This document shows positions 3 through 47,807 of a stretch of 47,807 bases of DNA, one piece after another (position 1 is the first letter of the stretch; each line of letters begins with the position of its first letter). The stretch is from Bradymonadia bacterium (lineage in GTDB: Bacteria > Myxococcota_A > Bradymonadia > UBA7976 > UBA1532): contig JBKAGE010000012.1 of NCBI GenBank assembly GCA_046290225.1, positions 1-47,807 of the forward strand, read 5' to 3'. The notes beneath the pieces were generated by a model, which worked only from the letters and a program-made list of their open reading frames with translations, did not search any database and had not been told where the DNA came from. A program made the translations under genes and the position numbers.

Positions 3-3000
3 AACGACAACAACGCCGCTGTGAACCCCGGTGCTGCCGAGATTCTCCGCAACGGCATTGATGACGACTGCAACCCCGCAACCAACGACCTCCCCGACGC
101 CGACGGTGACGGCTTCTACGAGGACACCGACTGCGATGACTCCAACGCCAACGTCAACCCCGACGCTGTGGAGATCCCCGGCAATGGTCTCGACGATGAC
201 TGTGACTCGAGCACCTTCGATGGTCCTGACAACGACAGCGATGGCTACGATCAGACGACGGACTGCGACGACGCCAACGCCGCTGTGAACCCCGGCGCCG
301 ACGAGATCGTGGGCAACGGCATCGACGACGACTGTGATCCCAACACCCTCGACATCGCCGTCACCATCGTGGAGACCAACCTGCGCCGCGGCGTGAACGG
401 CTACGACGGCGTGACCGATGTGCACGTGAGCCGGTTGTCCACCACCTACATCCCCGAGAACACCGGGAACTTTGGCGCCAACACCGTGCTCCGCATCGCT
501 GAGGACGGCCAGCGGCAGCTGCTGATGAAGTTCGAGCTCGAGGGCGTGCCCCCGCTGGCGGTCATCGACTCGGCGAACATCGTGCTCAACATCGAGTCCA
601 TCAGCTACATCGACAACCCGCAGATCGCGGTCTACCCGATGAGCGTCTCCTGGATCGAAGGTACCTGCGAAAGCCAGTACGGCTGTGTGCCCAACGGCGC
701 CACCCACATCACCCGGGGCCCCGGCCTCGGCGACTGGGCCACCCCCGGCGGTGACTATGGCGCACAGTACGCCGTGGTCGACGCCCCGGAGAGCGGCTCG
801 GTGTCGGTGCCCGTCACCGACCTGGCGCGGAACTGGGCTTCTGGTGCCGCCGCCAACAATGGCGTGATGCTCCGCGGTGTGCGGCAGTGGTCCAACGACT
901 TCCGCATCACCAGCTCCGAGTCGGCGAACGAGGCCCTGCGGCCCCAGCTCTCGATTCGTTGGTACCTGCCCCCCGGCGTGACCGATGGTGACGGCGATGG
1001 CTTCGACGCCGACGTGGACTGCAACGACGCCGTGGCGGCCATCAACCCCGACGCCGACGAGATCCTCGGCAACGGCATCGACGACGACTGCGACCCCGGC
1101 ACCGACGACACGCCTGACCTCGATGGTGACGGCTTCGACTTCCTGGCGGACTGTGACGACGACAACGCCGCGGTGAACCCCGACGCTGACGAGGTCCTGC
1201 TCAACGGCATCGACGACGACTGCAACCCCGCCACGTCGGACTTCCCCGACGCTGACGGTGACGGCTTCACCTCCGACGTGGACTGCAACGACGCCCGGGC
1301 CAGCGTGAACCCCGACGCCGACGAGGTTCTGCTCAACGGCATCGACGACGATTGTGATCCGGCGACGTCGGACTTCCCCGACGCCGATGGCGACGGCTAC
1401 ACCTCTGACGTGGACTGCGACGACAGCAACGCCAGCGTGAACCCCGGCGCCAACGAGGTGATGAACAACACCCTCGACGACGACTGCGATCCGAGCACCT
1501 TCGACGGGGCCGACGACGACGGCGACGGCTACGACATCCTCTCGGACTGCAACGACTACAACGCCAACGTGAACCCCGCCGCCGTGGAGATCATCGACAA
1601 TGGCCTCGATGACGACTGCGACCCGAGCACCCTGGATTACGACGTGGTGACCACCACCACGACGCTGCGCCGGGGTCTCAACGGGTACGATGGCGTGGGC
1701 GACACCTTCCTCAGCTCCGTCTCCGCCACCGGCGTGCCGGAGAACACCGGCAACTTCGGCGGCGCCGAGGAGATGCGGGTTTCCAACGATGGTGTGCGCA
1801 ACGCGCTGATCAAGTTCGACGTCAGCGAGATTCCCCGCCTGGCGGTCATCGAAGAGGCCTTCCTCACGGTGAACATCGAGAGCCTGAACTACCCCAGCGA
1901 CGATCCGTCCTTGTCGGTGTTCCGCATCTACCGCGAGTGGGACGAGGGCACCTGCGTGAACCAGTATGTGTGCCAGGCCGACGGGGCCACCTCGTTCAGC
2001 CGAGGCGTCAACCTCAGCAACTGGATCAACCCCAACGGCGACATCGCCGAGCGCATCTCGGTCACGTCTACCCCGAGCAGCGGCAAGGTGGACCTGCCCG
2101 TCACCTCGCTGGTGGCGGACTGGGTGGCGGGGAACACGGCGAACTACGGCATGATGGTCCGTGGCGAGATCCTGCACCTGAACGACTACAGGCTCTCGAG
2201 CTCCGAGGCGGGCACCGCCACCAACCGGCCCACCCTCACGGTGCGCTGGCACATGCCGCCTCTGCTGGCCCCCGGCACCGGTGCCCTGGCGCCGCGCCAG
2301 GAGAACACCACCTGTAAGTTCCCCGAGGTGGCCGGTGGCCCGGTGCAGAAGCAGCAGATCTACCTCGGCCTCGGCCTCGACTGGCTGGTGTGGATCGACG
2401 ACGTGCCCGGCATGGCGAACTACAAGGCCGGCGTGGGTCTGCACGGCAAGATCTGGCTGGTGGAGAACGGCCTCACGATGGGTGAGCCCGTGGACTTCCT
2501 CGACCTGCCCCAGGTGGTCTGGCAGAACAGCCCCGAAGACGGCTTGCTGTCGATGGCGTTCCACCCCGACTACCAGAACAACGGTCGGTTCTTCGTGAGC
2601 TACACCGTGCAGGAGCCCCTGCGGGTCAGGCTGTCGGAGTACACCCGGGATCCGAACAACCCGATGCAGGCTGATCCGAACTCCGAGCGCATCCTCCTCG
2701 AGATCGAGAAGGACGCCCCGGGCCACAACGGTGGTGACCTGGAGTTCGGCCTCGACGGCTACATGTACATGACCGTCGGTGACACCAACGGCGGCGAGTT
2801 CAGCGCCATGGAGGCCACGCGCCCCTCGAACCTGAAGGGCACCGTGATCCGCATCGACGTGGACAACTACGACGCTGGCGCAGGCGAGCAGTACGGCATT
2901 CCGCCGGACAACCCCTTCGCCGCCGGCGACGTGATCACCCCCTGGGACGACGCCCCCGCCCGCCCCGAGGTCTGGGCCTACGGGTTCCGTCACCCCTGGC

Positions 3001-5838: not shown

Positions 5839-5869
5839 AGGGGGAGAGGTCCCGCTCCGCGGGTAAGAG

Positions 5870-6237
5870 AGTTTTCGGGCACGGGCACGGGCACGGGCAC
5901 GGGCACGAGTTGATTCGGGTGTTGACCCGTGGCCTATCCTGAACTCAGGGCGATGGTTGTCATTGAGGCTGAGTTGATGCACTTCAGAATGGCCGGAGGC
6001 TTCAGGTCCTGGGTGTGCAACCGGGAACATGGTTTACAGATTGGTCGTCAGCAAACCGGGGACATGGTTTACAGGTTCTTGGGGAGGGGGTGGAGGTCCA
6101 AACCTTCACAGTGAAGCACATGGGGCCGAGTAGAGCCTCCACCATCACACACCCACGAGCGGAGTCATGCAGGGCCACGGGTTCACACCCGAATCAACTC
6201 GTGCCCGTGCCCGTGCCCGTGCCCGTGCCCGAAAACT
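5870..6237. mobile_element. Family A MITE/REPIN-like element, copy 1 (65-bp terminal inverted repeats containing (GGGCAC)5)
   Basis: 5870-5934 and 6173-6237 are inverted repeats with 2 mismatches; the interior is homologous (reverse complement) to 35745-36039; lies between convergent genes. Confidence 0.75.
6014..6074 (+). mobile_element. Orphan IS481-like terminal fragment inside family A copy 1
   Basis: Starts TGT; two 21-bp direct repeats AACCGGGRACATGGTTTACAG (6019-6039, 6054-6074); absent from the second family A copy. Confidence 0.45.
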
Positions 6238-6287
6238 GATCTGCGAGCGAAGCGAGCCCACTCATATAGACCCAACCCCCATCAAAA

Positions 6288-18539: not shown

Positions 18540-18710
18540 GCGTTTACAAAGCTTATGAACACGCTTGACGGAATTTAACGTGTTCGGAAACGACTTCACT
18601 GGACCAGGGTCATCCATATTGTGTAGCGACTTCGAAAGCTGCCGTTGTGGGCAACCCCCTGCGCCGGCTCGCTGTACGAACCTTATGCAAGGTTAGACAA
18701 GGACTGTACG
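18540..18710 (+). promoter_or_regulatory. Putative CarH operator repeats in the carH-crtI intergenic region
   Basis: TnnRCR hexamers at ~11-bp spacing: TGTACG 18673, TATGCA 18684, TAGACA 18694, TGTACG 18705; weaker set TTTACA 18543 and TTGACG 18565. Confidence 0.55.
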
Positions 18711-18715
18711 TCATC

Positions 18716-20254
18716 ATGAACAGCCCCGCAACTCGTCCTGCTCCTCAGCGCCTGGATCAAAACGCACCACACGCCGTGGTCATCGGCAGCGGGTTCGGTG
18801 GTCTCGCCGCCGCTGTGCGCCTCGGGGCCCGCGGGTATCGGGTCACGGTGCTCGAAAAGCTCGATGCCCCAGGGGGCCGGGCTTACGTGCACGCTCAGGA
18901 TGGTTTTGTCTTCGACGCCGGGCCTACGGTGGTCACCGCGCCCTTCTTGTTCGAAGAGCTGTGGTCCCTGTGTGGCCGGGAAATGTCCCAAGACATCGAT
19001 ATGCGGCCGGTGACGCCGTTCTATCGAATCCGCTTCGACGACGGCAAAATCTTCGACTACACCGGTGACGCCGAGGCGATGCGTCGGGAGATCAACAAGT
19101 TCAACCCCGACGACGTGAAGGGGTACGAGCGGTTTCTGAAGGCGAGCGAAGAGATCTTCAAGGTGGGCTTCGAGCAGCTGGCTCACGTGCCTTTCGGCTC
19201 GTGGAGCGACATGGCGAAGATCATCCCCGCCATGGTGAAGCTGCAGAGCTACCGTACGGTGTACAGCCTGGTCTCGAAGTACATCAAAGACGAGCGCTTG
19301 CGGCAGGTCTTTAGCTTCCACCCCCTGCTCGTGGGCGGGAACCCGTTCTCCACGACCTCGATCTACACGTTGATCGCATTCCTGGAGCGCAAGTGGGGGG
19401 TGCACTTCCCCATGGGCGGCACCGGCAGCCTGGTGAACGGCTTGGTGAAGCTCATCACCGAGGTGCAGGGGAACACGATCCGCTACAACACCGCCGTGCA
19501 GGAGATCACCGTCGAGGGCAAGCGGGCCACGGGCGTGCGCCTCGCCGATGGTGAGATCATCGAGGCCGACGTGGTGGTGTCGAACGCCGACTCGGCGACG
19601 ACCTACCGCCACATGGTGCCCCCGGAGCACCGCAAGCGCTGGACCGACAAGCGCCTCGACAAGGCCCGCTACAGCATGAGCCTCTTCGTCTGGTACTTCG
19701 GCACCAACCGCAAGTACGACGACATCGCCCACCACACGATCCTGCTGGGCCCCCGGTACAAGGGGCTGCTCACCGACATCTTCAAGCACAAGGTGCTTGC
19801 AGAAGACTTCAGCCTCTACCTGCACCGCCCCACAGCCACTGATCCTTCTCTGGCCCCCGAGGGCTGTGACGGGTTCTATGTGCTCTCGCCGGTGCCTCAC
19901 CTCGACAGCGGGGTGGATTGGTCGACGAAGGCGGAAGAATACCGTCTGGCGGTGAGCCGTTACCTCGAGCAGGCCTGTATGCCGGGCCTGGAAGAGAGCA
20001 TCGTGAGTTCGCGCCTGCTGACGCCTCAGGATTTTCAGGATCGCCTCAGTTCCCTCAAGGGCGCGGCCTTTGGCCTGGAGCCGGTGTTGATCCAGAGCGC
20101 ATGGTTCCGCCCACACAACAAGAGCGAAGAGCTGGACCGCCTCTACCTCGTGGGCGCGGGCACTCACCCTGGCGCCGGCATGCCGGGGGTGTTGTCTTCT
20201 GCTCGGGTCCTCGACACTGTGGTGCCCGATCCCACATCGATTCGTCGTGGCTGA
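18716..20254 (+). CDS. crtI: Phytoene desaturase
   Basis: FAD motif VIGSGFGGLAAA, GGRAY, FDAGPT, HHTILLGPRY, LYLVGAGTHPGAGMPGV. Confidence 0.95.
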   Translation: MNSPATRPAPQRLDQNAPHAVVIGSGFGGLAAAVRLGARGYRVTVLEKLDAPGGRAYVHAQDGFVFDAGPTVVTAPFLFEELWSLCGREMSQDIDMRPVTPFYRIRFDDGKIFDYTGDAEAMRREINKFNPDDVKGYERFLKASEEIFKVGFEQLAHVPFGSWSDMAKIIPAMVKLQSYRTVYSLVSKYIKDERLRQVFSFHPLLVGGNPFSTTSIYTLIAFLERKWGVHFPMGGTGSLVNGLVKLITEVQGNTIRYNTAVQEITVEGKRATGVRLADGEIIEADVVVSNADSATTYRHMVPPEHRKRWTDKRLDKARYSMSLFVWYFGTNRKYDDIAHHTILLGPRYKGLLTDIFKHKVLAEDFSLYLHRPTATDPSLAPEGCDGFYVLSPVPHLDSGVDWSTKAEEYRLAVSRYLEQACMPGLEESIVSSRLLTPQDFQDRLSSLKGAAFGLEPVLIQSAWFRPHNKSEELDRLYLVGAGTHPGAGMPGVLSSARVLDTVVPDPTSIRRG

Positions 20255-21275
20255 GATGCAGGCGCAACCCGAAGGCACACTCCAGCGCGTCATCCCAACG
20301 GACGGCGCGCTGCTGACCGAGCGAGAGTCCACGGCCTGTCAGGCGCTCTTGAGCAAAGGCTCGAAGAGCTTCGCCGCGGCGGCTCTGTTGTTGCCCCGAC
20401 ACATGCGGCAGCCGGCGGCAGCGCTCTATGCGTTTTGTCGGGTGGCCGACGACGCGGTGGACGACGCTGAAGATCCCCGTGAGGGGCTCGCCCTGATGCG
20501 CCGCCGCGTGGCTCAGGCGTATGCGGGCACCCCCGACGATGATCCGGTGGATACGGCGTTTGCCCGAGTGGTGCAGGCGTATGCGATCCCACAAGCGGTG
20601 CCTGAGGCGCTGCTCGAGGGTTTCGCCTGGGACGCGGAGGGCAAGGTCTACGAGACCCTCTCAGATGTGCGGGCATATGGGGTTCGGGTGGCGAGCACGG
20701 TGGGGGTGATGATGACCCTGCTGATGGGCCAGCGCGATCCCGAGGTGCTGGCTCGGGCGTGTGATCTGGGGGTGGCGATGCAGCTCACAAACATCGCCCG
20801 GGATGTGGGAGAAGATGCAGGTATGGGCCGCATCTATCTGCCCCGTGCATGGATGCGTGAGCGGGGCCTTGATCCTGAAAACTGGCTGGCGTCGCCGACC
20901 TTCTCCCCGGAGATCGCATCTATGGTCTCGGCTCTGCTCGACGAGGCCGCTGTGCTGTACCGCCGATCTCGAGCGGGCATTACGGCTCTGCCTCGGGACT
21001 GCCGCCTGGCGATCCGCGCTGCAGAGCTGATCTACGCCGACATCGGTCGTGTGATCCGCCGTCGCGGTCACGACTCGGTGTCGGGGCGGGCATATACATC
21101 GAAGGCCCGCAAGCTCTGGCTGCTGGCCCGGGCATCGACAGCAGCGCTCTGGTGGCGACGCGCCTGTGACGCGCCCCCGTTGGAAGAGGCGAAGATCTTG
21201 ATTGAACCCATGATCCCCGAAGACGCGGCGCTGCACCCTGCGACGCTGGCTCGGGCTGAAGCGGGCGTGAGGTGA
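20247..21275 (+). CDS. crtB: Phytoene synthase
   Basis: GSKSF, LYAFCRVADDAVD, VASTVG, LGVAMQLTNIARDVGEDA..GRIYLP. Confidence 0.95.
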   Translation: MAEMQAQPEGTLQRVIPTDGALLTERESTACQALLSKGSKSFAAAALLLPRHMRQPAAALYAFCRVADDAVDDAEDPREGLALMRRRVAQAYAGTPDDDPVDTAFARVVQAYAIPQAVPEALLEGFAWDAEGKVYETLSDVRAYGVRVASTVGVMMTLLMGQRDPEVLARACDLGVAMQLTNIARDVGEDAGMGRIYLPRAWMRERGLDPENWLASPTFSPEIASMVSALLDEAAVLYRRSRAGITALPRDCRLAIRAAELIYADIGRVIRRRGHDSVSGRAYTSKARKLWLLARASTAALWWRRACDAPPLEEAKILIEPMIPEDAALHPATLARAEAGVR

Positions 21276-22162
21276 CTGGTATGAAGACTGACTTCAAGAC
21301 ACGCGTGGAGCGGGCGGTCACCGCATCGTTGTCCTTCGAATCGGATACGCAATGTCCGCCGATGCTCCTGGAGGCGATGCGCCACGCGGTGCTCTCTGGT
21401 GGGGGTCGGGTCCGCCCGATGTTGTGCATGGCGGTGGCGGCGGCGGAGGGGGGCGCGGAGCCGGCCCTGGTCGATGCTGCGGCGGTGGCGGTGGAGCTCC
21501 TCCACTGCGCGAGCCTGGTGCACGATGACTTGCCCTGTTTCGACGACGCGACGATGCGCCGTGGCCAGCCGACGGTACATCGCCGCTTCGGTGAGCCGAT
21601 GGCGGTGCTGGTGGGCGATGCCCTCATCGTCCGGGCCTTCGAGCTGGTGGCCCGCGCCCCAACGGCTCACCCTCAACGTATGGCCCTGATCATGCGGGAG
21701 ATCGCTGCTGGGGTGGGTGCACCAGGTGGCATCGTGGCGGGTCAGGCCTGGGAGTCTGAGCCTAACGTGGAGCTGACGGCGTATCACCGCGCCAAGACTG
21801 CGGCCCTCTTCGAGTCGGCTGTGGCTGCGGGTGCTGCGGCGGTGGGGGCTGATCCCGACCGCTGGCGCGCCCTGGGTACGCGCCTGGGTGAGGCGTATCA
21901 AGTGGCGGATGATCTCGCCGATGTGCTCTCGTCACCTGATCTGATGGGCAAGCCCACAGGTCAGGATACGTCTCTCCACCGCCCGAGCGCTGTGGGTGAG
22001 CTGGGGGTCGATGGTGCGATCTGCCGCATGAACCAGCTGATCGAAGATACGGTGGCCGCTGTGCCCCCCTGCGCTGGCCGCAATGAGCTGATCAAGCTCG
22101 TCGAGTCCATCGCCACCCGGTTGTTCTCCTCCGCACCTCCAGCCCTCGCAGCGGCCATCTGA
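21272..22162 (+). CDS. crtE: Geranylgeranyl diphosphate synthase
   Basis: GGGRVRP, ASLVHDDLPCFDDATMRRG, KTAALF, AYQVADD, GKPTGQD; GTGA overlap with crtB (alternative ATG 21281). Confidence 0.92.
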   Translation: MTGMKTDFKTRVERAVTASLSFESDTQCPPMLLEAMRHAVLSGGGRVRPMLCMAVAAAEGGAEPALVDAAAVAVELLHCASLVHDDLPCFDDATMRRGQPTVHRRFGEPMAVLVGDALIVRAFELVARAPTAHPQRMALIMREIAAGVGAPGGIVAGQAWESEPNVELTAYHRAKTAALFESAVAAGAAAVGADPDRWRALGTRLGEAYQVADDLADVLSSPDLMGKPTGQDTSLHRPSAVGELGVDGAICRMNQLIEDTVAAVPPCAGRNELIKLVESIATRLFSSAPPALAAAI

Positions 22163-22202
22163 GTTCTCCTCCGCACCTCCAGCCCTCGCAGTGGCCATCT
22201 GA
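22123..22202 (+). repeat. 40-bp tandem duplication of the crtE 3' end including the stop codon
   Basis: 22123-22162 and 22163-22202 differ at one base (GTTCTCCTCCGCACCTCCAGCCCTCGCAGYGGCCATCTGA). Confidence 0.95.
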
Positions 22203-22351
22203 GTGGCGATCCGCGGCGTCTGAGCGGCGCCGCAATCCTCGACGCAGCGCTGGCAGAAGCCTTCGCTGCGCCTGCGGTGTGCGTCACCGCTCAGCCACCA
22301 CGTCTCACCACTCAGCTGGCCACTGCGATGGCCTCCGGTGCTCCGTGGGGC
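22169..22351 (-). repeat. Family B long-hairpin element, copy 1
   Basis: Minus strand begins GCCCCACGGAG, core CCGCAGGCG-hairpin-CGTCGAGGA, ends GGAG; ~50-bp imperfect stem with G-T pairs. Confidence 0.75.
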
Positions 22352-22430
22352 CGGCCTGGTGTGGATTGAGATAGGGTCGTTGGGAGGAGGGGGTGGGGGA
22401 GGACTGGGTTGGGAGAGAAGGTGTGGTGAG

Positions 22431-23171
22431 ATGGGTGATCGATTTCCCATTGTGATCGCGGAGACCCGCTTTGAGACGGTCGAAGACCTCGCCGCCGACA
22501 TTACACGTCGTGGTGAGGACTGTGTTCTGCCAGAGCGAAGCGGCCTCGACCCATGGGACTGGTATGCCCGTTGGATGAGGGAAGACACCTCTGGGAAAAT
22601 TGAGGCAGCAGTGTTGGAGGCGTGCGCCGTGCTGATCGAGCACAGCACCTCTGGCGATGCACTTCACCCAGCGATTCAGCTGACAGGCAGCCGCGGCTCA
22701 CCGGCGACACTCCGCGCCATCATGGATCGCATCGCCTCGGGCAACATGCCCGATGCCCGTTGGTATGGTGATCACGATGCGCTCTCGAAGCGCGCGCTCT
22801 CAACGATCAGCTATGGTGTGCGTACACGCATCCCCGAAGACACGCCCCGTCTCGTCTGGCTGCTCGAGGCTCATGGTGAGTTCTACGCAGCTGCCTCGAT
22901 CCTGCTCACAGGCCCCAACCCTGATCCTGCAGTCATCGACCTTGTTGACCGTTGGGCAAGGTCAATGGACATCCAGCCTGAAGAAGCCAGCGCCCTCGGC
23001 AGCACGGCAAGCTTCTACCCTGATCTCGTGGTGCCCCTTGCTGTGTCTTTGTCCAGAGCAAACGAAGACGCAAAGGCTGCCTTCCAAGCCCAAATCGACG
23101 AGCATCTGCCCGAAAAAGCCCATGCTGTATTCGAAGCCATCAAGCCAGAACACCAACATAAAGAAACGTAA
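22431..23171 (+). CDS. Hypothetical protein (atypical codon usage)
   Basis: 246-aa ORF from ATG 22431; visibly more A/T-ending codons than neighbours; flanked by two family B elements. Confidence 0.65.
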   Translation: MGDRFPIVIAETRFETVEDLAADITRRGEDCVLPERSGLDPWDWYARWMREDTSGKIEAAVLEACAVLIEHSTSGDALHPAIQLTGSRGSPATLRAIMDRIASGNMPDARWYGDHDALSKRALSTISYGVRTRIPEDTPRLVWLLEAHGEFYAAASILLTGPNPDPAVIDLVDRWARSMDIQPEEASALGSTASFYPDLVVPLAVSLSRANEDAKAAFQAQIDEHLPEKAHAVFEAIKPEHQHKET

Positions 23172-23177: not shown

Positions 23178-23350
23178 GCCCCGCGGAAGGACGGAGCCGA
23201 CGGGAGTCGGTGATGAATCGGTGAGTTGGTGTGCAGTTGGGGTGATTCACCCGCAGGCGTAAGCCAGCGGCTACGTCGAGGACGGAAGCGCCACAGATGT
23301 GCGCCAAATCGCCGATTCAGCGGTGGCTCACGGCGGCGGAGTCCTGGAGC
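23178..23350 (+). repeat. Family B long-hairpin element, copy 2
   Basis: GCCCCGCGGA...CCGCAGGCG-TAAGCCAGCGGCTA-CGTCGAGGA...GGAGC; aligns end-to-end with the reverse complement of 47463-47632. Confidence 0.8.
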
Positions 23351-23353: not shown

Positions 23354-23950
23354 TCAGCGAAGGCTCATCGCGATGGAGTCCTGGAGCCCAACCTGGAACT
23401 CGTCCTTCAGGCGTTGACGGACGCGGTGGAAGCGGCTCTTCACTGCGGGCATCGACAAGCCAGTCTCGTCACAGATTTGCTGCAGTGACACGCCATCGAC
23501 GAAGCGGCGGGTGAACAGCTCGTACTCACCGTTGCCCTGACTCTTCAGGTACGCCTCGACCTGCTTGAGAACCTCACGGCTCGAGGCGAGGGCCTCTTGC
23601 CGGGCTGGGGCTGAGGTGCCGTTCCGGGGCCACTCGTCACCCACAGGGATGAGTCGATCCGAGCGACGCTTACGGAGGAGGGCCGTGTTGACCACGATGC
23701 GGGAGAGCCAGGACGAGAACGCAGAGGGCTCGCGGAGCTGATGCAGTCTGCGGAGGACCTGCAAGCAGCTTTCCTGTGTCACCTCGACGGCGGCGTCTGG
23801 ATCGCGAGTGAGCTTCATCGCCAGCGCGAAGAGTCGCTCGTAGTGAGCCGAGAGGAGCCGACTCATTGATGCCTTGTCACCGGCCTGAGCCTTGTGAACC
23901 AGCCGGGCTTCGAGCTCGGGCTCGATGACAGGTGCGCGTCGCCTTTTCAT
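23354..23950 (-). CDS. ECF-type sigma-70 factor
   Basis: Region 2 (LVHKAQAGD...DAAVEVTQE...AFSSWLSRIVVN) and region 4 (GVSLQQIC...AVKSRFHRVRQRL); alternative start ATG 23977. Confidence 0.9.
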   Translation of the reverse strand: MKRRRAPVIEPELEARLVHKAQAGDKASMSRLLSAHYERLFALAMKLTRDPDAAVEVTQESCLQVLRRLHQLREPSAFSSWLSRIVVNTALLRKRRSDRLIPVGDEWPRNGTSAPARQEALASSREVLKQVEAYLKSQGNGEYELFTRRFVDGVSLQQICDETGLSMPAVKSRFHRVRQRLKDEFQVGLQDSIAMSLR

Positions 23951-23994
23951 CTCTGCTCTCCCGAATTGGGGACACATGCGAACAACTGAGGCTG

Positions 23995-27179: not shown

Positions 27180-30100
27180 ATGACCCTGAAGCGCTCACTG
27201 AGCAGCCTGGCGCTGTGCATCTGGGTGCTGGTGGCGTGCGACGATGGGGCGAGCCCCTCAGCGGATGGGGGCCTGATGGCCGAAGAGGGCTGTACCGAAG
27301 GGGCCCAAGCACCGTGTGACACACCCTGCGCCGGGGGCACTCGCCAATGTGAAGGTGGGCGCTGGTCTACGTGTGAGCCTCCAGCGGAAGTCTGTGATGG
27401 CGCCGACAATGATTGTGATGGTGCCTCCGACGAGGGGTTCGAGCTGGGGCAGACCTGCACGGTGGGGATCGGTGCCTGTGTCGGTCAGGGCGTCCGCGTA
27501 TGTGACGAGGCTGGAGCGGTGATGTGTGATGCCGCGGCTGCTGCCCCCTCAGATGAGCAGTGCAACGGTGTGGACGACGACTGCGACGGCAGCACCGATG
27601 AAGGCATGGACGAAGGCACTGCATGTGAAGCGGGCCTGGGGCCATGCACCGCATCAGGGCAGATCAGGTGTGTTCAAGGCGCCTTGTTGTGTGACGCAGA
27701 GCCAGGGCAGCCAGGCCTTGAGCGTTGTAATGGCATCGACGACGACTGTGATGGCACCGCCGATGAAGACTACCTCGAGCTGGGAGAGTCCTGCATCGCT
27801 GGGATCGGGCTCTGTGCGCGCATGGGCACGGTGTTGTGTCTGACCGAAGACGAAGCAGGGTGCGACGCGACGCCGGGCCCACAGGCTGAAGAGCAGTGCA
27901 ATGGCGCTGACGACGACTGTGATGGCGAAGCCGACGAGGGCTTCACTCAGGTGGGCCAGCTGTGTGTCATCGGTGTTGGCATCTGCTCTGCCAGCGGCAC
28001 TTGGGTGTGTGGCCCCGAGGGCCAGGAGATCTGTACGGCTGCCGCAGGTGATCCCACCGAAGAGCTGTGCAATGGCGCCGATGACGACTGTGATGGTGCC
28101 ACCGACGAGGACTTCGACCTCGGAGCGCAGTGCAGCACAGGCCTGGGGGCGTGTGCGGCGCAGGGGGTGACAGTCTGCGATGCCCTTGAGGGCACCCAAT
28201 GTCAGATCGAAGCGCAGCCAGCGCCCACGCCAGAGGTGTGCAACGAGATCGACGATGACTGTGATGGCAACACCGACGAGGGCATCCCTGGTCTCGGAGC
28301 GCAGTGTGTTGTCGGTCAGGGCAACTGTGCCACAGAAGGGGTGCTGCGCTGTGGTGTCGGAGGCGTGCTCACCTGTGATGCCATCGGTGGGGTGCCGACA
28401 CCAGATGTGTGTGACGGTCTCGACAATGACTGTGACGGCACGGTGGACGAAGAGTTCCCTGGTGCGGGCGAGCGTTGCACGGCTGGCATGGGTGCGTGTC
28501 GTGCCGAGGGCATGCTGGCCTGTGATGCCGACGGCCTCGGAGTGAGCTGTACAGCTGTGGCTGGTGAGCCTTCTGGGGAGCAGTGCAATGGCATCGACGA
28601 CGACTGTGATGGCCGCACTGACGAGAACTTTCCCATCCTCGGTGGTGTGTGCGGTGCCGGCCGAGGTGGGTGCCGTACTGAAGGCCGCTTTGTCTGCGGC
28701 GTAAATGGAGTGACGTGCGACGCGGAGCCCGGAGCGCCCGGTGAAGAACGCTGCAATGGTGAAGATGACGACTGTGACGGCCGCACCGACGAGGGTTTTC
28801 AAGGCGTCGGCGGGCCCTGCGCCGTCGGGGTCGGCCAGTGCGCCGCCGAGGGCGTGCTCGTGTGCACCCCGCAAGGCGACGAGGTGGTCTGTGATGCTGC
28901 ACCTCTGACCCCTGGCCCAGAACTGTGCGACACCCTCGACAATGATTGTGATGGCGAAGCAGACGAGACCTTCGAGGTGCTCGGGGGCGTGTGTGTCGTC
29001 GGCGCAGGCCTCTGCGCAGCGCCAGGCGTGTGGGTGTGTGACGAGGCTGGTCTGAGCACGCGCTGTGATGGCACGCCAGGCGCACCCGCTGAAGAGCGCT
29101 GTAACGTTGAGGACGACGATTGCGATGGCGTCACCGACGAGGGCTTCCCCCCCATTGGCGAAGGGTGTGTCGTGGGTCGCGGTGCATGCACCGCCATCGG
29201 CCAATGGCAATGCACTGCAGATGGGGCCGGCGCGCTGTGTGATGGCATCGAAGGGGTGCCGGGTGTCGAAGCGTGCAATGCCATCGATGATGACTGTGAC
29301 GGGCCTGTCGACGAAGACTTCCCAACCCTCGGCAGCGCCTGCTCACCGGGTGTGGGTCTCTGCCGCCGCGAGGGCGTGCGCACCTGCAACGATGCCGGCG
29401 ACGGTGTGGTGTGCAGCGTAGAAGCGGGCGCGCCGTCGGCAGAGGTGTGTGATGGCCTCGACAACGACTGCGATGGTGCCACCGACGAGGACTGGCCAGA
29501 TGCTGGCGCTGCCTGTGTTGTCGGGGTCGGTGTGTGTCGCAGCGTGGGCGTACTGGTGTGTGCTGGCCTTGATGGCCCGCAGTGTGATGCTTCTGCCGGC
29601 GTACCGTCGGCAGAGGTGTGTGACGGCCTCGACAACGACTGCGATGGTGAAGCTGACGAGCACTTGCCTGCCCTCGGTACACCGTGCGCCGTCGGCGACT
29701 TGTGTGGCCTTTCTGGTGTGTGGGGCTGTGATGCAGGCGCCATGCGCTGCGTGCCCGACGGTGGCCCTCAGGCAGATGGATGCGTCGCACCTGCCTGTGA
29801 GCCGGATGCCGCAGAGCCCAACGATGTGCCTGGGGCAGGCGAGCGCCTCGAGCTGGGCAGCGCGAACACCTTCAACTTCTGCGATGACGGCGAGGACTGG
29901 CACCGGTTCGAGGGGCGCGCGGGGGTGGACTACCGCCTCGCCGCCACACCCACCGAGGTGATGGCTGGGGCGATCATGATCGAGATCTACGATCCCGTCA
30001 GCGGCACACTGCACAGCGCCGATCAGGGGACTGGCCCTGGTGGGCAGGCGCTGATCCCTCGATTCAGGCCTCAGCGGGATGGCGAGTGGTGGGTGAGGGC

Positions 30101-33100
30101 CACCAGCCTGCGTGGTCCCGTGGAGGGCGGTGAGTACACGCTGCACAGCGGCCTCGCCTGTGACGACGATGTGTACGAGCCCGATGATGTGCGTGACCGG
30201 GCGAGCCGGATCGATGTGGGCGAGATGCAAATCCGCACACTCTGTGGCGGTCCGGACTGGGTCCGGATCGAGGCTGAGGCGGGTACGATCTATGCCCTCG
30301 ACGCTCATGACCTCAGAGGAGGGGCTGACCCCTACCTCGAGCTGTACGATGCTGAGGGTACCCTGCTCCGCGTCGATCGGGACAGCGGGCGCCGCCTCGC
30401 CGCGCAGCTGTGGTGGCAGGCCCAGGCAGAGGGCAGCTACTTCGTGCGGGTGCTCAATCGGCCCGCCGAGGGGGCCCCTGATACAGCGCGCTATGGCGCA
30501 GGCCGTGGGTACACGCTGCAGCTGAGCACACCGGCATGGCCTCGCTGTGTGAGCGAGCCCATCTGCCCCGAGGGATCTACGTGCCTGCTCGGTCAGTGCG
30601 TGCCGTTCTCCGAGTGTGGGCCGGACCTGCGAGAAGAAGATGATGCCTGGTCAGAGGCCTGGCTCGCCCAGGTGGGCCGAGGGTATGCACTCAATCACTG
30701 CGCCGACACCGAGGACTGGTTGAGGTTCAAGGCCAGCGAGGCGACGCGCTATGACGTAGAGGTCTATGGCGTACGCGGTCCTCGAGCGGTCCAGATTCAA
30801 CTCGTCGACCTTGCCTCCGAGGAGGTCCTCGCCGAAGGGGTCCCCAAGGTGGACGGCGCCCAAATCAGCCTCTGGCGACCGGACAGCTCCAGCACCTTCG
30901 GAGTCAGAGTGGTGGAGACTGAGCCCCCTGAAGATGATCGTCGCCACACGGTCGTCGTTCGACCTGCATGTCTCGACGATCAGGCTGAGCCCGACAACGC
31001 CCCCTGGCTTGCCTCTGCGATCCCCCTCGATGGCCGCGTCGTCGCTCGGCAGCTCTGCCAGCCCGATTGGATGAAGTTCGAGATCGAGGAGGGCACTGGC
31101 TTGAGCCTCACCCTCGTCGGCGCAGGTGTCAGTCTGGAGATCAGAGGTCGCGATGGCGGTGCCACCCGTCTGGCCAGCTTGACCACGCAAGATGGTCTGC
31201 CTACCCGCTTGGACTGGGCGCCGAGCGCCTCTGGCGAATACTTCCTGCGGATCACCTCTGCAGAGGGCACCTATGGCGGTCAACGGCTCTATACACTCAC
31301 CGCCATCACCCAGCCGCGGGCTGAGCAGTGTGTGTCGGTGTGCAGCACCCGCACGCTCCTGTGTGGTGAGCGCCCTGTCGTCGATGGCGGCCCCCGACTG
31401 GCCCATCTCGTACATCAAGGGGGCAGCTACCCCTTACATCTCGTCGTTGATCGTGCGGCGCTTCAGCTCGACGCGGGTGTCGACGTGACCGACTTGCCCG
31501 GAGTACTTGAGGTGATCCCCAGCAGGCTCACCCCGAGGGGAGTGTACGGGGTGCGCCTCAAGAGCCCTGGCGCTCTGAGCGCGCTCAAGCACCACCCCGC
31601 CGTGCGCCGTGCCGAGTCGATCTATCGCGACGCCCACGGACGCCCGATCTGGCTCACGGGCACCGTGGTGGCGCGCGTGCGCGGCGACGGTGGTCCGAGC
31701 GCCGCAAAGGCCCTCGCAGACGACTATGGGCTGCAAGTGAGCAAGCCTGTCAGCGGCCTGCCTGGCGTCTGGCTGATGACAGTCGATCCACACAGTGAAG
31801 TCGACGCTGTGCACATCGCCGCCGCCATGCACACAGACGGCGCGGTGCGGTGGGCACACCCTGACATCTGGTTGCATCAGGTGCCCCACACCGAGGTGGA
31901 TGATCCCCTGTACCCCGCTCAATGGCATCTGGGCCATGAGCCTGGCGTCGAAGATCCCACCCTCGCCCGGCAGGGCATTGACGTGCGAGCCCACAGGGCC
32001 TGGCCTCTGATGGAAGCGGGCCAGCCGGTACCCGTGGCTGTCTTCGACGACGGTTTCGACCTTGAGCACCCCGATCTGCCGTACGCCGAAGATCCGGAGC
32101 GCCCAGGGCAGAGGTGGTTGATCAACGCCCCAGCGAACCCCGAGGCCCTGCTGCCCATCGGCCTCGCCAATCACGGCACCTCTGTGGCAGGTCTCGCCCT
32201 CGCCCGAACTGACAACGGAGCTGGCGTCGCCGGAGTATGCCCACAATGCACATTGGTGCCTGCCTTTGGCGCCACCACGAGCTCCATCGCTCAGCTCGCC
32301 GAGGTGTTCCTCACATTGCGGGATGAAGGCGTCGCCGTCGTCAACAACAGTTGGGGGGCAGCCCCAGGCCGCGTACCCGTACTCGACCCCGATGGAGTGC
32401 CCGGCGGTCCGGCGGTGCTGCCCCTCGCCGACGTACTCGCCGAGGCCATCGAAAGCGTCGCCACCGCGGGGCGTGGTGGCCTCGGTGCCGTGATCGTTTT
32501 CTCGGCCGGCAATGGGAATGCCCCTGTGGATTTCGATCCATTCTCTGCCGCCGATGGGGTGATCGCTGTGGGGGCCATCGCCGACGATGGCCTCAAATCG
32601 CCATACAGCAACTTCGGTCACCGACTCTGGATCAGCGCCCCCTCTTCAGGGGGAGAGACCTCAGGGGTGCTCACCACCGACGCCACAGGGCTGTGGGGCT
32701 ACAGCCCCGGAGACTACACCGACAGCTTTGGCGGCACCTCTGCGGCGGCCCCCCTCGTGGCGGGGGCTGCAGGGGCCATGATCAGCGTGAACCCCGAGCT
32801 CACCGCAGCTCAGGTGAAAGATCTGCTGCGTCTCACAGCACGCCCCATCGATCCATTGCACGGTCAGTGGCGAGACGACGGAGAGGGCCGGCGGTGGTCC
32901 CCGCTCTACGGCTACGGCATGCTCGATGTCGAAGCGGCTGTGCTCGCCGCTGCTCGAGGGTGTGATCCGCAGGTGAACGATCGCTGCGTCCCCCTCGGCG
33001 ATGCGTGTCCAGATGGCACCCCAGGGCTCTTCGAGGGTGGCTGTGACGGCGAGGGCGGGCCACATGCACAGTGCGAAACGTGCAGCTTCGATCGACGCTG

Positions 33101-33611
33101 CCCCGGCCTGTGCGCGGTGGCGCCGGGGGCCCCCGAGGCCTTCTGTTTGCTGCCATGTGAAGATGGAGCGTGCCCCTCAGGGACTTGCATCAATGGCGTG
33201 TGCTACCCAGAGGCCGGGTGCGCCCCTGTCGTAGACGAGATCTGTGATGATGCCGATCAAGACCTCGATGGCCACATCGACGAGGGCGCATGCCCCGTGG
33301 TGCCATTGGGGGCGCTCTGTGACGCTGATCGAGCCTGTATGTCTGGTGGGCTGTGCGTCGAAGGGGTGTGCCGTGCGCAGTGTGGTCCGCTCGAGCCCTG
33401 CGCTGGCCCGGGGGAGCGATGCCTTGCCCAGGTCGATCGATTTGGCACCACCACCGGCCGCCGAATCTGCCTGCCAGTACAATCCGACATCTATGACTGC
33501 CTCTCGGCCTGCTATGGCATCCAGCGGCAGCAGGGGCAGCTTGCCGTGCTCACCCTCGACGCCTGCGTGGAGCCCGCCCAGTCTTGTGCTCAAGTGGAGA
33601 GATGTTTCTGA
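27180..33611 (+). CDS. Giant (2143 aa) lipoprotein: 14 MopE-like Cys/Asp repeats, PPC-like domains, S8 subtilase domain, Cys-rich tail
   Basis: Lipobox LVAC; 14 copies of (E/D)xC(N/D)xxD(D/N)DCDGxxDE at ~60-aa period; triad FDDG, NHGTSVAG, GGTSAAAP. Confidence 0.88.
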   Translation: MTLKRSLSSLALCIWVLVACDDGASPSADGGLMAEEGCTEGAQAPCDTPCAGGTRQCEGGRWSTCEPPAEVCDGADNDCDGASDEGFELGQTCTVGIGACVGQGVRVCDEAGAVMCDAAAAAPSDEQCNGVDDDCDGSTDEGMDEGTACEAGLGPCTASGQIRCVQGALLCDAEPGQPGLERCNGIDDDCDGTADEDYLELGESCIAGIGLCARMGTVLCLTEDEAGCDATPGPQAEEQCNGADDDCDGEADEGFTQVGQLCVIGVGICSASGTWVCGPEGQEICTAAAGDPTEELCNGADDDCDGATDEDFDLGAQCSTGLGACAAQGVTVCDALEGTQCQIEAQPAPTPEVCNEIDDDCDGNTDEGIPGLGAQCVVGQGNCATEGVLRCGVGGVLTCDAIGGVPTPDVCDGLDNDCDGTVDEEFPGAGERCTAGMGACRAEGMLACDADGLGVSCTAVAGEPSGEQCNGIDDDCDGRTDENFPILGGVCGAGRGGCRTEGRFVCGVNGVTCDAEPGAPGEERCNGEDDDCDGRTDEGFQGVGGPCAVGVGQCAAEGVLVCTPQGDEVVCDAAPLTPGPELCDTLDNDCDGEADETFEVLGGVCVVGAGLCAAPGVWVCDEAGLSTRCDGTPGAPAEERCNVEDDDCDGVTDEGFPPIGEGCVVGRGACTAIGQWQCTADGAGALCDGIEGVPGVEACNAIDDDCDGPVDEDFPTLGSACSPGVGLCRREGVRTCNDAGDGVVCSVEAGAPSAEVCDGLDNDCDGATDEDWPDAGAACVVGVGVCRSVGVLVCAGLDGPQCDASAGVPSAEVCDGLDNDCDGEADEHLPALGTPCAVGDLCGLSGVWGCDAGAMRCVPDGGPQADGCVAPACEPDAAEPNDVPGAGERLELGSANTFNFCDDGEDWHRFEGRAGVDYRLAATPTEVMAGAIMIEIYDPVSGTLHSADQGTGPGGQALIPRFRPQRDGEWWVRATSLRGPVEGGEYTLHSGLACDDDVYEPDDVRDRASRIDVGEMQIRTLCGGPDWVRIEAEAGTIYALDAHDLRGGADPYLELYDAEGTLLRVDRDSGRRLAAQLWWQAQAEGSYFVRVLNRPAEGAPDTARYGAGRGYTLQLSTPAWPRCVSEPICPEGSTCLLGQCVPFSECGPDLREEDDAWSEAWLAQVGRGYALNHCADTEDWLRFKASEATRYDVEVYGVRGPRAVQIQLVDLASEEVLAEGVPKVDGAQISLWRPDSSSTFGVRVVETEPPEDDRRHTVVVRPACLDDQAEPDNAPWLASAIPLDGRVVARQLCQPDWMKFEIEEGTGLSLTLVGAGVSLEIRGRDGGATRLASLTTQDGLPTRLDWAPSASGEYFLRITSAEGTYGGQRLYTLTAITQPRAEQCVSVCSTRTLLCGERPVVDGGPRLAHLVHQGGSYPLHLVVDRAALQLDAGVDVTDLPGVLEVIPSRLTPRGVYGVRLKSPGALSALKHHPAVRRAESIYRDAHGRPIWLTGTVVARVRGDGGPSAAKALADDYGLQVSKPVSGLPGVWLMTVDPHSEVDAVHIAAAMHTDGAVRWAHPDIWLHQVPHTEVDDPLYPAQWHLGHEPGVEDPTLARQGIDVRAHRAWPLMEAGQPVPVAVFDDGFDLEHPDLPYAEDPERPGQRWLINAPANPEALLPIGLANHGTSVAGLALARTDNGAGVAGVCPQCTLVPAFGATTSSIAQLAEVFLTLRDEGVAVVNNSWGAAPGRVPVLDPDGVPGGPAVLPLADVLAEAIESVATAGRGGLGAVIVFSAGNGNAPVDFDPFSAADGVIAVGAIADDGLKSPYSNFGHRLWISAPSSGGETSGVLTTDATGLWGYSPGDYTDSFGGTSAAAPLVAGAAGAMISVNPELTAAQVKDLLRLTARPIDPLHGQWRDDGEGRRWSPLYGYGMLDVEAAVLAAARGCDPQVNDRCVPLGDACPDGTPGLFEGGCDGEGGPHAQCETCSFDRRCPGLCAVAPGAPEAFCLLPCEDGACPSGTCINGVCYPEAGCAPVVDEICDDADQDLDGHIDEGACPVVPLGALCDADRACMSGGLCVEGVCRAQCGPLEPCAGPGERCLAQVDRFGTTTGRRICLPVQSDIYDCLSACYGIQRQQGQLAVLTLDACVEPAQSCAQVERCF

Positions 33612-35744: not shown

Positions 35745-36039
35745 AGTTTCGGGCACGGGTACGGGCACGGGCACGGGCACGAGTTTTACGGATATGGACC
35801 CGTGGCCCTACATGGCTCTGCTCGTAGGTCTGTGATGGTGGAGGCTCTACTCGGCCCCACGTTCCTCTCAATGGAGGCTTTTGGCCTCCATACATCCCAA
35901 GACCTGAACTCTCAAGTCGTTCGGAAACACATCATCTCAGTTTCAGTTGTATTCTTCGTCCTGAGTTCAGGAAGGACAGTGGATCCACACCCGAATCAAC
36001 TCGTGCCCGTGCCCGTGCCCGTGCCCGTGCCCGAAAACT
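35745..36039. mobile_element. Family A MITE/REPIN-like element, copy 2
   Basis: AGTTTC(GGGYAC)5GAGTT ... CACACCCGAATCAACTC(GTGCCC)5GAAAACT; interior matches the reverse complement of 5870-6237 (e.g. TGTGATGGTGGAGGCTCTACTCGGCCCCA identical). Confidence 0.75.
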
Positions 36040-36081
36040 CTCTCTGCGAGCGAAGGCGTCAGCCGCAGCGAGTGCACGCGT

Positions 36082-45192: not shown

Positions 45193-47457
45193 ATGATGAG
45201 CGAGCAATTGGTCATGGACGATGATCTCCACCCCATCTCCCAAACAACATCGAACAACACGCCACCCTTGATGGCCGTACCACCTGGTGGAGACTCGCTC
45301 GTCGCTGCCTTGAAACACCATTTCGGCTTCGACGACTTCCAGGTGGGCCAGAGAGCAGTCATCGAAGACGTACTCGCCGGGCTGCCCACAGTGGCCGTGA
45401 TGCCCACAGGGGCTGGCAAGAGCCTCTGTTACCAGCTGCCTGCGTTGTTGCTCGATGGGGTGACGGTCGTCGTCAGCCCACTGATTTCGTTGATGAAAGA
45501 TCAGGTCGACAGTCTACAAGCGCGTGGCGTACAGGCCGATTTCATCAATAGCACTCAGAGCACCGAAGAGCAGATGGCGGCCCTGCACCGCGTCGCCAGC
45601 GGCATCACCAAGCTGGTCTATGTGGCCCCGGAGCGTTTCCGTCATGGGGCCTTCCTCAGAGCGCTCTCCGTGGCGAAGGTGGCCCTCATGGCCATCGACG
45701 AGGCCCACTGCATCAGCCGGTGGGGCCACGACTTCCGCCCCGACTACATGCGCCTGGGCCAGGCCCTGCGCAAGATCAAGCCTCAGCGGGTGCTCGCATG
45801 TACCGCCACCGCCACCGAAGAGGTCCGGCAGGACATCACCCGTACTCTGGGCTTCGAAGAGCCCAGCATCCACGTGCACGGCTTCTTGCGGTCGAACCTC
45901 TACCTCGAGGCGCGCCTGTGCAGCGGTGACAACGAGAAGCTCGAGCGTATCGTCGAGTTCGTCACCGACGGCCCGGGTCGTGAGGGCGCAGTCATCGTCT
46001 ACTGCAGCACCCGCAAGAAGGTCGAAAAGTTCGCCGTGGGTCTCTGGAAGTCCTTCAAGGGCCGCCAGCGCGTCGTGCAATACCACGGCGGCATGGACGA
46101 CAACGCCCGGGCCATGGCCCAGGAAGAGTTCATGTCGGGTCAGGCCCGCATCGCTGTGGCCACCAACGCCTTCGGCATGGGGGTTGATCGCTCCGACGTG
46201 CGCGCCGTGGTGCACGCTGATCTGCCCCGCACTGTCGAGGGGTACTACCAGGAAGTGGGCCGCGCTGGCCGTGACCGGCAACCCTCTCACTGCTTGTTGT
46301 TGTTCAACCCCAATGATACTCGAGTGCACGAGTTCCTCATCGACCAGAGCAACCCTGGCCCTGGGGCCATCGCCCAGGTGTGGCGGCTGGTGCGCAACGT
46401 CGCCGTCGACCGTCCCGTACCCCTCGACACCCTCGAGCGGCTGGTGCCCGATCAAATCAAGAGCAGCCTCGACGCCTCGCTGCGGTTCCTGAGCCGCGTC
46501 GACGTCGTCGGTCGAGATCCGGACAACAATGTATGGGCCAGTGCTGACGCTCCCGCCGACGTCTCTTTGCTCGGCCTCAACCTCGACGACATGGCCGCCC
46601 ACCGCGACGCCGAGATGGAGAAGCTCAACCGCATGAAGGCCTGGGTGACTTCGGCTCCGTGTCGTCACCGCTACATCCTCGACTACTTTGGTGAGGCCTA
46701 CAGCGGAGAGTGCCCAGGGTGTGATCGCTGCCACCCTGATCGCAGCTCTCGCCCTGCGCCGCTCAATGACGGCCCCCCCTCCGAGGCCGAGGTGCTCATC
46801 ATCCGCAAGGGCCTCGCCGGCGTCGCCCGGGCCGAGGGCCGTTTTGGCATGAAGAAGGTGGCGGGCATGCTCGCGGGCTCCCGAGCGAAGGGCGTGGCCA
46901 ACACCCGCCTGTCGGGCTTGTCCACCTTCGGCATCCTCAAGGCGCTCGGTGGTGCAGGCTGCGGCGAGCTGTTGCGCATCCTCATCGAGCAGGGCGTCTG
47001 TGAGCTCGACGGAGGCCAATACCCGCTGATCCAAATCAACGCCGAGGGCTGGGCAGTGATGCAGGGTCACACCCCCCCAGGCTTCCGCCTGCCACCACAC
47101 CTCGTCCCGGGCACACCGATCCCCATCAAGGTGCGGCCCCGTAAATCCAGCTCGAGCGCCCCCGCAGGTGTCATGAGCACAGTCTCTCCAAGCGGCAATG
47201 ACACCACGATAGAGCTCGACGAGCAGGCCCCCGAGTTCGACGACGGCCGCCTCGATCTGCTCCGGGCGTTCCGTAAAGAAGAGGCCGCCAACGCAGATGC
47301 ACCGCCGTACACGATCTTCTCCAACAAGACGATGATGCAGATCGCCGCACGCTCACCCCTCGACGAGGCCAGCTTCCTGGCTGTGCCAGGCCTCGGCCCC
47401 ACGCGTTGGGAGCGCTACGGGGAGCGATTGATCAAGGTCGTGGAGCAGTGGGCTTAG
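45193..47457 (+). CDS. recQ: RecQ-family ATP-dependent DNA helicase with RQC and HRDC domains
   Basis: MPTGAGKSLCYQLP, DEAHC, WGHDFRP, TATA, ATNAFGMG, YYQEVGRAGRD, Zn CR..YFGE..C..CDRC, PPYTIFSNKT. Confidence 0.93.
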   Translation: MMSEQLVMDDDLHPISQTTSNNTPPLMAVPPGGDSLVAALKHHFGFDDFQVGQRAVIEDVLAGLPTVAVMPTGAGKSLCYQLPALLLDGVTVVVSPLISLMKDQVDSLQARGVQADFINSTQSTEEQMAALHRVASGITKLVYVAPERFRHGAFLRALSVAKVALMAIDEAHCISRWGHDFRPDYMRLGQALRKIKPQRVLACTATATEEVRQDITRTLGFEEPSIHVHGFLRSNLYLEARLCSGDNEKLERIVEFVTDGPGREGAVIVYCSTRKKVEKFAVGLWKSFKGRQRVVQYHGGMDDNARAMAQEEFMSGQARIAVATNAFGMGVDRSDVRAVVHADLPRTVEGYYQEVGRAGRDRQPSHCLLLFNPNDTRVHEFLIDQSNPGPGAIAQVWRLVRNVAVDRPVPLDTLERLVPDQIKSSLDASLRFLSRVDVVGRDPDNNVWASADAPADVSLLGLNLDDMAAHRDAEMEKLNRMKAWVTSAPCRHRYILDYFGEAYSGECPGCDRCHPDRSSRPAPLNDGPPSEAEVLIIRKGLAGVARAEGRFGMKKVAGMLAGSRAKGVANTRLSGLSTFGILKALGGAGCGELLRILIEQGVCELDGGQYPLIQINAEGWAVMQGHTPPGFRLPPHLVPGTPIPIKVRPRKSSSSAPAGVMSTVSPSGNDTTIELDEQAPEFDDGRLDLLRAFRKEEAANADAPPYTIFSNKTMMQIAARSPLDEASFLAVPGLGPTRWERYGERLIKVVEQWA

Positions 47458-47462: not shown

Positions 47463-47632
47463 GCTCCGGCGCTGCGGCGGCGTCAGCCGCCGTGACGCCG
47501 GCGATTTCCCGCCCAGCTGCGACCTTTCCGTCCTCGACGCAGCTCTGCTGCGCCTGCGGGTGAAAGCCCGCATCTGAACGAGAACTCACCGACCTCACGA
47601 CGACTGCCACCACCTCCGCGCCTCCGCGGGGC
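47463..47632 (-). repeat. Family B long-hairpin element, copy 3
   Basis: Minus strand GCCCCGCGGA...CCGCAGGCG-CAGCAGAGCTG-CGTCGAGGA...GGAGC; ~53-bp imperfect stem; begins 5 nt after the recQ stop. Confidence 0.8.
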
Positions 47633-47807
47633 ACGTGCACAACGCTTTTATGGCTTTGTGGGACTTTCTAGGGCTCTTTGGAGCTTCTGGCTGCCGTCAT
47701 CTCCGCGTCTCCGGTACGTCAGGCCAAGCCTGTTTGAACATGTCAGATGAAAGGTGCTGACCATGTGAATTGCTCGTTCGACATGTAGACCGCCAGGCTG
47801 TGGACGA

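Follow-up and report, generated by a model that had tools for sequence, protein, structure and literature searches.

A multicopy long-hairpin element in a Bradymonadia genome, mostly with its folded strand antisense to the adjacent gene and its 3' end next to the stop codon

The stretch of DNA analysed here, henceforth called the window, comprises positions 1 to 47,807 of contig JBKAGE010000012.1 of a Bradymonadia bacterium (GCA_046290225.1). It carries three copies of a long-hairpin element, family B. Copy 1 (22168..22349, minus strand; 144 bits with the covariance model described below) is divergent, has an apex that is 13 nt longer, and lies 5 nt from the stop of a crtE-like polyprenyl synthetase gene (21272..22162, plus strand; PF00348, E 7e-47). 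This gene belongs to a carotenoid gene cluster at 18647-22162 (desaturase, phytoene synthase, crtE), and a carotenoid oxygenase gene of the RPE65 family is located at 42275-43786. Copy 2 (23180..23350, plus strand; 150 bits) is situated between two convergent genes, i.e., an ORF without Pfam match (22434..23171, plus strand), which stops 8 nt before the 5' end of the copy, and an ECF sigma factor gene (23354..23977, minus strand; PF04542, PF08281), whose stop is 3 nt away. Copy 3 (47463..47630, minus strand; 159 bits) belongs to the largest and most similar subfamily and lies 5 nt from the stop of recQ (45193..47457, plus strand; DEAD, Helicase_C, RQC and HRDC domains). On their 5' sides, copy 1 has an A/C-rich leader evident from the sequence (22350..22430, minus strand), and copy 3 has a leader together with a partial element copy that covers the first ~25 nt (47631..47713, minus strand), inside which the 5' end of another multi-copy element begins, probably that of a group II intron (47714..47807, plus strand).

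Directly at the 3' end of copy 1, the sequence contains a 40-nt tandem duplicate of that end (22123..22162, minus strand), and translation revealed that the last 12 codons and the stop of crtE are this duplicate read on the plus strand; four crtE orthologs end 6-15 residues past the same helix with unrelated tails. RNA folding z-scores for copies 1, 2 and 3 were -10.3, -4.4 and -9.9 on the element strand versus -7.8, -2.3 and -2.4 on the opposite strand, and DNA folding parameters ranked the strands of the three copies in the same way. A sigma-70 promoter was not found around copies 1 and 2. Matches to Rfam were absent from the window at gathering score (best sub-threshold match 37 bits versus 168). 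An earlier note on this DNA had described three copies with shared ends and apex, a better-folding strand in each, and crtE, ECF sigma and recQ genes ending antisense within a few nucleotides of the GGAG end; all of this holds at the coordinates and distances given above. Its description of both ends as fixed stands for the sharp 3' end, while the 5' end carries a ragged leader.

Iterated nhmmer searches of the whole genome yielded 81 full copies of about 168 nt each as well as about 22 half copies at contig ends. A covariance model built from 29 copies recovered the same 81 full copies at 115-166 bits together with a second, weaker group. Identity between copies ranges from 49 to 98%, and no two are identical. 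In the alignment of the 29 copies, 96% of 1797 cells are paired and 47 of the 62 pairs show double changes, which bears out the earlier claim that the arms diverge in sequence yet still pair; this level of covariation (kinship of the copies uncorrected) was reached by none of 500 shuffles and none of six slid controls. The element strand folds better than its complement in all 81 copies (mean -120.5 vs -83.9 kcal/mol). Across the consensus pairs of these copies, G-U or U-G occupies 730 cells and C-A or A-C only 19, a skew that identifies the strand under selection. Repair of one arm from the other would do away with wobbles and loops, and if transcription brought C-to-T changes to the coding strand, the element strand would show C-A. 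One further copy of 72 nt (C81:47843-47914) is internally deleted, has kept both ends, and still abuts an antisense stop.

The letters of the stems are free, and what is fixed are the internal loops and the G-U positions. Basal C-GNA-G loops are present on both arms, with only their middle base free, and a fixed GNA/GA 3x2 loop lies under the apex. Terminal loops are mostly 3 nt long (AGC in 30/81, GGA in 15/81) and none of the 81 is of the GNRA or UNCG type, making them more like hairpins of ssDNA than of RNA. The strand-specific wobbles and loops, which are present even in lone diverged copies, show selection on the fold of the antisense strand. Because pairing is kept down to 49% identity and also in a lone copy at rplK of a relative (see below), this selection appears to act locus by locus and not only on a few master copies.

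For the genomic context, genes were predicted with a simple purpose-made caller, which gave 6237 genes (89% coding). An antisense gene follows the 3' end in 74 of 81 copies, and its stop lies -1 to 8 nt from the 3' end of the element in 53 of the 81. In four further copies the ORF enters the element by 23 nt and then stops, and several copies reach the stop via a tandem duplicate of the last 20-70 nt of the element. The 3' end of a tRNA lies 6 nt from the element end in two copies, and CCA was found at none of five tRNA junctions, as is expected of borders at the DNA level. A locus with seven tRNA genes (Leu, Ser, Tyr, one long and called Thr) also holds two outward-facing family B copies (L020, C37:77200-78700). 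A terminator was called beside one of the two copies tested in this genome, and none beside a copy with an A-run in the relative G208. A few start-facing copies occur in operon spacers (rpmA-obgE, clpS-clpA), where the GGAG end lies 2-7 nt before the ATG; sense-facing copies also occur as the partner of an outward-facing pair. The neighbours rpsD, rpmA, rpmE, rpmG, ssb, obgE, clpS and clpA were named from C-terminal sequences and are presumed to be these genes.

On the 5' side, the next gene is 8 to over 3000 nt away, and a same-strand upstream stop within 15 nt of the folded 5' end was found in one of 37 cases (hand recount), namely at copy 2 of the window. Convergent-gene contexts account for 32 of 68 copies versus 290 of 3312 gaps (hand recount). 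Replication-strand bias was not detected (36 vs 26 of 62 scorable copies). The 30 copies with the top scores, which resemble one another, all end flush with a landmark: 22 with a stop directly, four with a stop via the 3' duplicate, two with a terminator-like sequence, one with a tRNA and one with a start. The short 3' spacers are A/C-rich (69 of 98 nt in a hand count of 32/37 spacers; control 0.49) and therefore look element-derived rather than native. Target-site duplications flush with the conserved ends were not seen by eye, the outer 5' border being undefined, and empty sites were not found in short contigs from small shares of two DNA sequencing runs. The rule that the folded strand is antisense and its 3' end lies within 8 nt of a transcript end holds for at least five genomes, which belong to two families and have unrelated stems. 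Selection on a single-strand structure and the antisense polarity, which had been proposed from the three copies in the window, are supported genome-wide over the 81 copies.

Only the 3' end of family B is sharp. The leader that precedes the 5' end has an A+C content of 0.64-0.67 in its first 60 nt (81 copies) compared to 0.49 in 775 control spacers. A leader unit of ~110 nt, including a partial 5' copy, is common to eight of 11 aligned copies and is also what lies beside copy 3 in the window; the other three aligned copies keep ~30 nt. The leader is heritable but ragged.

Two mobile elements insert into family B. Six identical 5' ends, probably those of a group II intron, were found, all on the gene-sense strand behind the CTCCG of a family B end, five at the 5'-end site and one at the mirror site of the 3' end; the one in the window starts at 47714. 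Seven matching intron 3' ends, one of them a remnant, lie inside B-type leaders, and RF00029 scored above gathering at six contig ends (49.1 bits, gathering 40). The intron, whose body and RT are absent from the assembly, is seen only as ends at contig borders (C5, C9, C23, C37, C51, C56, C62, C65, C66 and C72) and lies on the gene-sense, weak-folding strand. Its two ends are joined on the basis of their shared insertion site, which makes window positions 47714-47807 the probable 5' end of the intron with 3' ends in family B leaders. All insertion sites seen for this intron are family B ends. An IS, whose body and transposase likewise lie outside the assembled contigs, is represented by 21 ends (about 11 copies), 21/21 of which lie behind the apex palindrome TAGCC-nnn-GGCT, with inverted ends of 17-21 bp and an 11-bp (or 3-bp) duplication (e.g., L467:699-783, corresponding to C35:546698-546782). 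The arms differ around identical IS ends, which indicates independent insertions instead of one master copy. Intact relatives were found in 0/112 class genomes for the intron and likewise for the IS, and the IS was not found in viral contigs.

Outside this genome, the covariance model had matches in 10 of 60 relatives and in 14 of 150 phylum genomes. The strict apex pattern was present in 22 of 86 class genomes (20/35 in family f6) and had no match in the control. BLAST searches of family B in the 60 relatives returned three weak partial matches only. B-type ends were not found in any other genome, as 71 matches of a pattern scan of GTDB included none confirmed by the model, and among 119+ matches of a metagenome scan none of the 80 tested was confirmed. 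The apex pattern gave 110 viral matches (one of 80 tested confirmed by the model), and plasmids held no full match to family B.

Copies in relatives fall into MITE-like and diverged ones, the former having the family B apex together with TIRs and target duplications of 6 bp or of the TAG type. In the closed genome G189 (13/13 copies aligned), ten near-identical copies have 6-7-bp duplications (target duplications in 10/10 MITE copies), two are of another type, and one diverged copy overlaps the stop of rplK (folding z -8.8). In G208 (12/25 aligned), seven near-identical MITE copies (target duplications in 6/7) and one CTAG-type copy occur beside four diverged ones, three of which end 3-6 nt from the 3' end of an antisense tRNA; no tRNA is present at the other eight loci. 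G209 has CTAG- and TTAAG-type MITE families with the apex, and G008 and G047 have apex-sharing TIR families. The diverged copies in relatives each have their own terminal stem, have no target duplication, and follow the position rule of family B. In G053, an antisense stop lies about -2 to 4 nt away (judged by eye) in each of the ten copies read, and in G014 two copies abut a terminator-like U-tract and at the third a partial duplicate then follows. Partial 5' copies are stacked upstream of the element in G014, G053 and G208. In G053 there are up to five of them 5' of the element and never any between its 3' end and the gene, and heptamer as well as longer microsatellite runs pile up on the 5' side (L422, L425, L426, L435, L423).

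In the genome of the window itself, a second family of about 15-25 copies (e.g., C42:41340-41500, C18:18080-18240 and C51:16339-16499) has the same apex, true TIRs and TAA-type flanks, and 48-bp and 290-bp forms with its TIR exist. The only assembled DDE transposase was considered as its mover and rejected, since it is without the TIR of that family. A MITE with B-type arms was not found in this genome, whose MITE family shares only the apex with family B.

The core of family B has already been described in Geobacter, where it is unexplained. Aklujkar et al. (2009; PMC2700814, Figure S1) listed 24 'predicted short RNA elements' of Geobacter metallireducens, Gmet_R1001-R1024, and reverse-complementing their central palindrome gives the commonest family B apex (loop AGC, 30/81). 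Both sets are intergenic and multicopy and have variable arms, with the same apex on opposite strands, and R1003, R1010, R1015 and R1021 also carry the flanking GCA/GA loop. The Geobacter elements measure ~113 nt and were aligned by BLAST, and the accessible parts of that publication (PMC2700814) report neither covariation nor polarity, and neither a position rule nor a mechanism. The arms of family B differ and are longer, with paired GNA loops at their base, and family B has a leader; compared by eye, its arms are unrelated to the Geobacter ones, and membership beyond the apex was rejected. The earlier note could not assign a named family, and Rfam has none at gathering score; the apical ~35 nt of family B are those of a described repeat. 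Covariation and orientation bias persisted over the larger set of copies, and a match to a described repeat was obtained for the apex only. In its behaviour family B is comparable to a REP/REPIN or to a domesticated MITE, and by its apex it belongs to a superfamily first listed in Geobacter.

The explanation that we favour, tentatively and as something short of probable, is that family B consists of MITE-derived hairpins kept by the host as a putative one-way RNA barrier, with the antisense strand being selected. Copies would enter intergenic DNA as MITE-type inserts and then lose their ends, and on the 3' side trimming or overwriting would proceed until it reaches the first indispensable feature. 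Selection would remove inserts oriented such that the strong fold directly follows a stop, whereas mRNA may tolerate the weak-folding strand; this step leans on a review (PMC5009743, accessible in part) that names stem-loops up to 15 nt from a stop as triggers of tmRNA action and decay. RNA heading for the gene from the far side would meet the C-rich, G-poor leader and then a rod of ~60 bp, which together would end or cut it before it overlaps with the gene. Recombination between copies may spread and mix the stems in this lineage.

This explanation is favoured by the pairing kept in diverged copies, the G-U excess, the presence of two copy classes in one genome (MITE-like copies and diverged copies at a stop or tRNA in G189 and G208), the antisense stops in G053, the single same-strand stop within 15 nt among 37, the excess of convergent contexts, the GGAG ends of the few start-facing copies and the tRNA junctions without CCA. 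ERIC, Correia and RUP, which are bacterial DDE MITEs, are hairpin-forming, non-coding and near stop codons, as is family B, and its relatives in G189, G208, G209 and G008 as well as the second family of this genome are true MITEs. Family B itself was rejected as a DDE MITE: its ends pair only through GNA/GNA loops and have no TIR, no duplication was seen by eye at the conserved ends, the 3' end lies at varying distances from the stop (-1 to 8 nt), and the copies are far from identical. That the MITE family of this genome shares only the apex, and that none found here has B-type arms, counts against the explanation, as do the A/C-rich 3' spacers, the ssDNA-like loops and the lack of a sigma-70 promoter around copies 1 and 2. 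All 30 top copies being flush fits one-step targeting better than slow trimming, unless conversion homogenised old copies.

Such targeting would be supplied by retroposition, in which family B would be a bacterial SINE: a reverse transcriptase (RT) acting in trans would join the 3' end of the element to RNA-defined 3' ends, and the copy would then be fixed in the chromosome. We regard this as possible but doubtful, and hold with the same reserve that the targets would be mRNA trimmed to the terminating ribosome, terminator U-tracts and tRNA precursors. The anatomy of family B is SINE-like (fixed 3' end, ragged 5' end, short 3' tail), and the heritability of that 5' end, the terminal partial duplicates and the A/C-rich composition of the 3' tails agree with it, as do antisense polarity, landmarks without shared DNA sequence, young copies that are already flush, and the lack of replication-strand bias. 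The genome has a multi-copy group II intron that uses the element as insertion site, and RTs of such introns jump end-to-end onto the 3' end of a second RNA, with addition of untemplated bases (PMC3898094, accessible in part). The assembled RTs, however, two in number, belong to type XIII retrons, and the msd in their msr-msd-like region does not resemble the element; the G053 assembly (96% complete) follows the position rule and contains neither an RT nor an intron end. RTs were found in eight of ten genomes tested of the taxonomic family of G053, including two of four without the apex, and gave no co-occurrence signal. The tRNA junctions have no CCA (0/5), and sense-oriented copies at start codons would need a second route.

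A REPIN-like selfish element is unlikely. In this case an HUH or other single-strand enzyme would cut folded ssDNA near the 3' end and rejoin it variably; no more likely is the accompanying proposal that position and polarity follow from such cutting plus the purging of harmful inserts. The DNA-type triloops and the GNA loops with a free middle base speak for it. Like REPs, REPINs and BIMEs, as far as the accessible parts of two publications describe them (PMC3733652; PMC1525189), family B is extragenic, lies downstream of genes, is enriched at convergent sites, and has outward-facing pairs and partial tandem copies. Its use as an IS target, with 21/21 ends behind the apex palindrome, also recalls REPs (Tobes and Pareja 2006, PMC1525189). 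REPs are palindromes of 20-40 bp with an unpaired GTAG or CGTC end tag (Di Nocera et al. 2013, PMC3733652), whereas family B is a single rod of 170 nt with strict polarity and massive compensatory change among paralogs, in which CGTC occurs only inside the paired apex and no unpaired GTAG or CGTC end tag exists. Membership in REP/REPIN was therefore rejected. The REP/RAYT reading offered in the earlier note fails further on the enzyme: PF01797 (Y1/RAYT) found nothing in this genome, which is 99% complete, and the element is missing from all 18 Y1 loci of five carriers. IS91-type Y2 enzymes were found in 0/3 genomes, where the positive control was silent too. Lagging-strand bias is absent as well. 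Altogether, the search for a linked HUH enzyme, tyrosine recombinase or RT, which the earlier note had suggested, found no enzyme linked to family B.

Neutral MITE remnants, in which template switching between arms would keep these complementary and a preference for AT-rich targets in a GC-rich genome would bring inserts to stops and U-tracts with nothing being selected, are improbable, and this reading is already strained. Related MITEs do use AT-rich 6-bp targets or CTAG/TTAAG, and arm-to-arm repair would provide the double changes that many of the pair flips (G-C to C-G) require. The same repair would remove the G-U pairs and loops, whose places are constant and confined to one strand; a polarity of 74:7 does not result from symmetric targets, and duplications flush with the conserved ends were not seen by eye.

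An attC-like recombination site, with the bottom strand folding behind each gene, was another suggestion of the earlier note. attC core sites read RYYYAAC/GTTRRRY. Family B resembles attC in the order of gene, stop and hairpin, in the folded bottom strand, in the conservation of structure over sequence, and in serving as a group II intron target (group IIC introns use the hairpin site of attC; PMC3898094, accessible in part). Its consensus ends lack the R''/R' core sites, it is not arranged in cassette arrays but dispersed behind core genes (rpsD, rpmA, rpmE, rpmG, ssb), its intron lies on the gene-sense, weak-folding strand, and no integron integrase exceeded the cut-off (TIGR02249 best 85.6 bits, cut-off 265), so that membership was rejected and the reading is very improbable. 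Equally far-fetched is retroposed msDNA of the resident retron, of the kind proposed for repeats of Nannocystis exedens (accessible part of PMC6868368): length and G-T-rich single-strand hairpin recall msDNA and two type XIII retron RTs are resident, but the element profile found no similarity at the retron locus, including the msd (best E 0.35). The locus itself (C79:172510-188000; L001, L002) contains two convergent RTs, a 27-nt a1/a2 inverted repeat round the msr-msd-like region upstream of the first RT, and, by eye, SWIM-like, WGR-like and HEAT-repeat neighbours.

In the openly accessible literature (subscription journals being largely outside it), no publication on family B or the position rule was found, and searches for the apex motifs in full text and for SINE-like bacterial repeats were blank. 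Not found in print were covariation among paralogs throughout the family, a strand and position rule that spans families, the pattern of two copy classes next to MITEs, and the insertion of both an intron and an IS at the element. With 81 natural variants of one fold and near-complete compensation, family B amounts to a ready-made mutational scan, which names the GNA/GNA and GNA/GA loops, the fixed G-U pairs and one strand as the selected features. The occurrence of the position rule beside MITEs with the same apex makes testable why palindromic repeats crowd at stop codons and also how MITEs become host elements, and the apex has stood as an unexplained annotation in Geobacter since 2009. If the SINE reading were true, family B would show in nature how a structured site comes to be joined directly to the end of an ORF, a step in the origin of integron cassettes that lacks an explanation, and the intron homing into the element would be a candidate for the enzyme.

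Two other kinds of repeats were observed in the window. Two long ORFs (1-4421 and 27180-33611) contain many GxDDDCDG-type repeats of 44 and about 57 residues, respectively. A different fold-back repeat family with (GGCACG)n arms is located at 5844-6263 and 35747-36043, and (GGCACG)n arrays also occur upstream of some family B copies.
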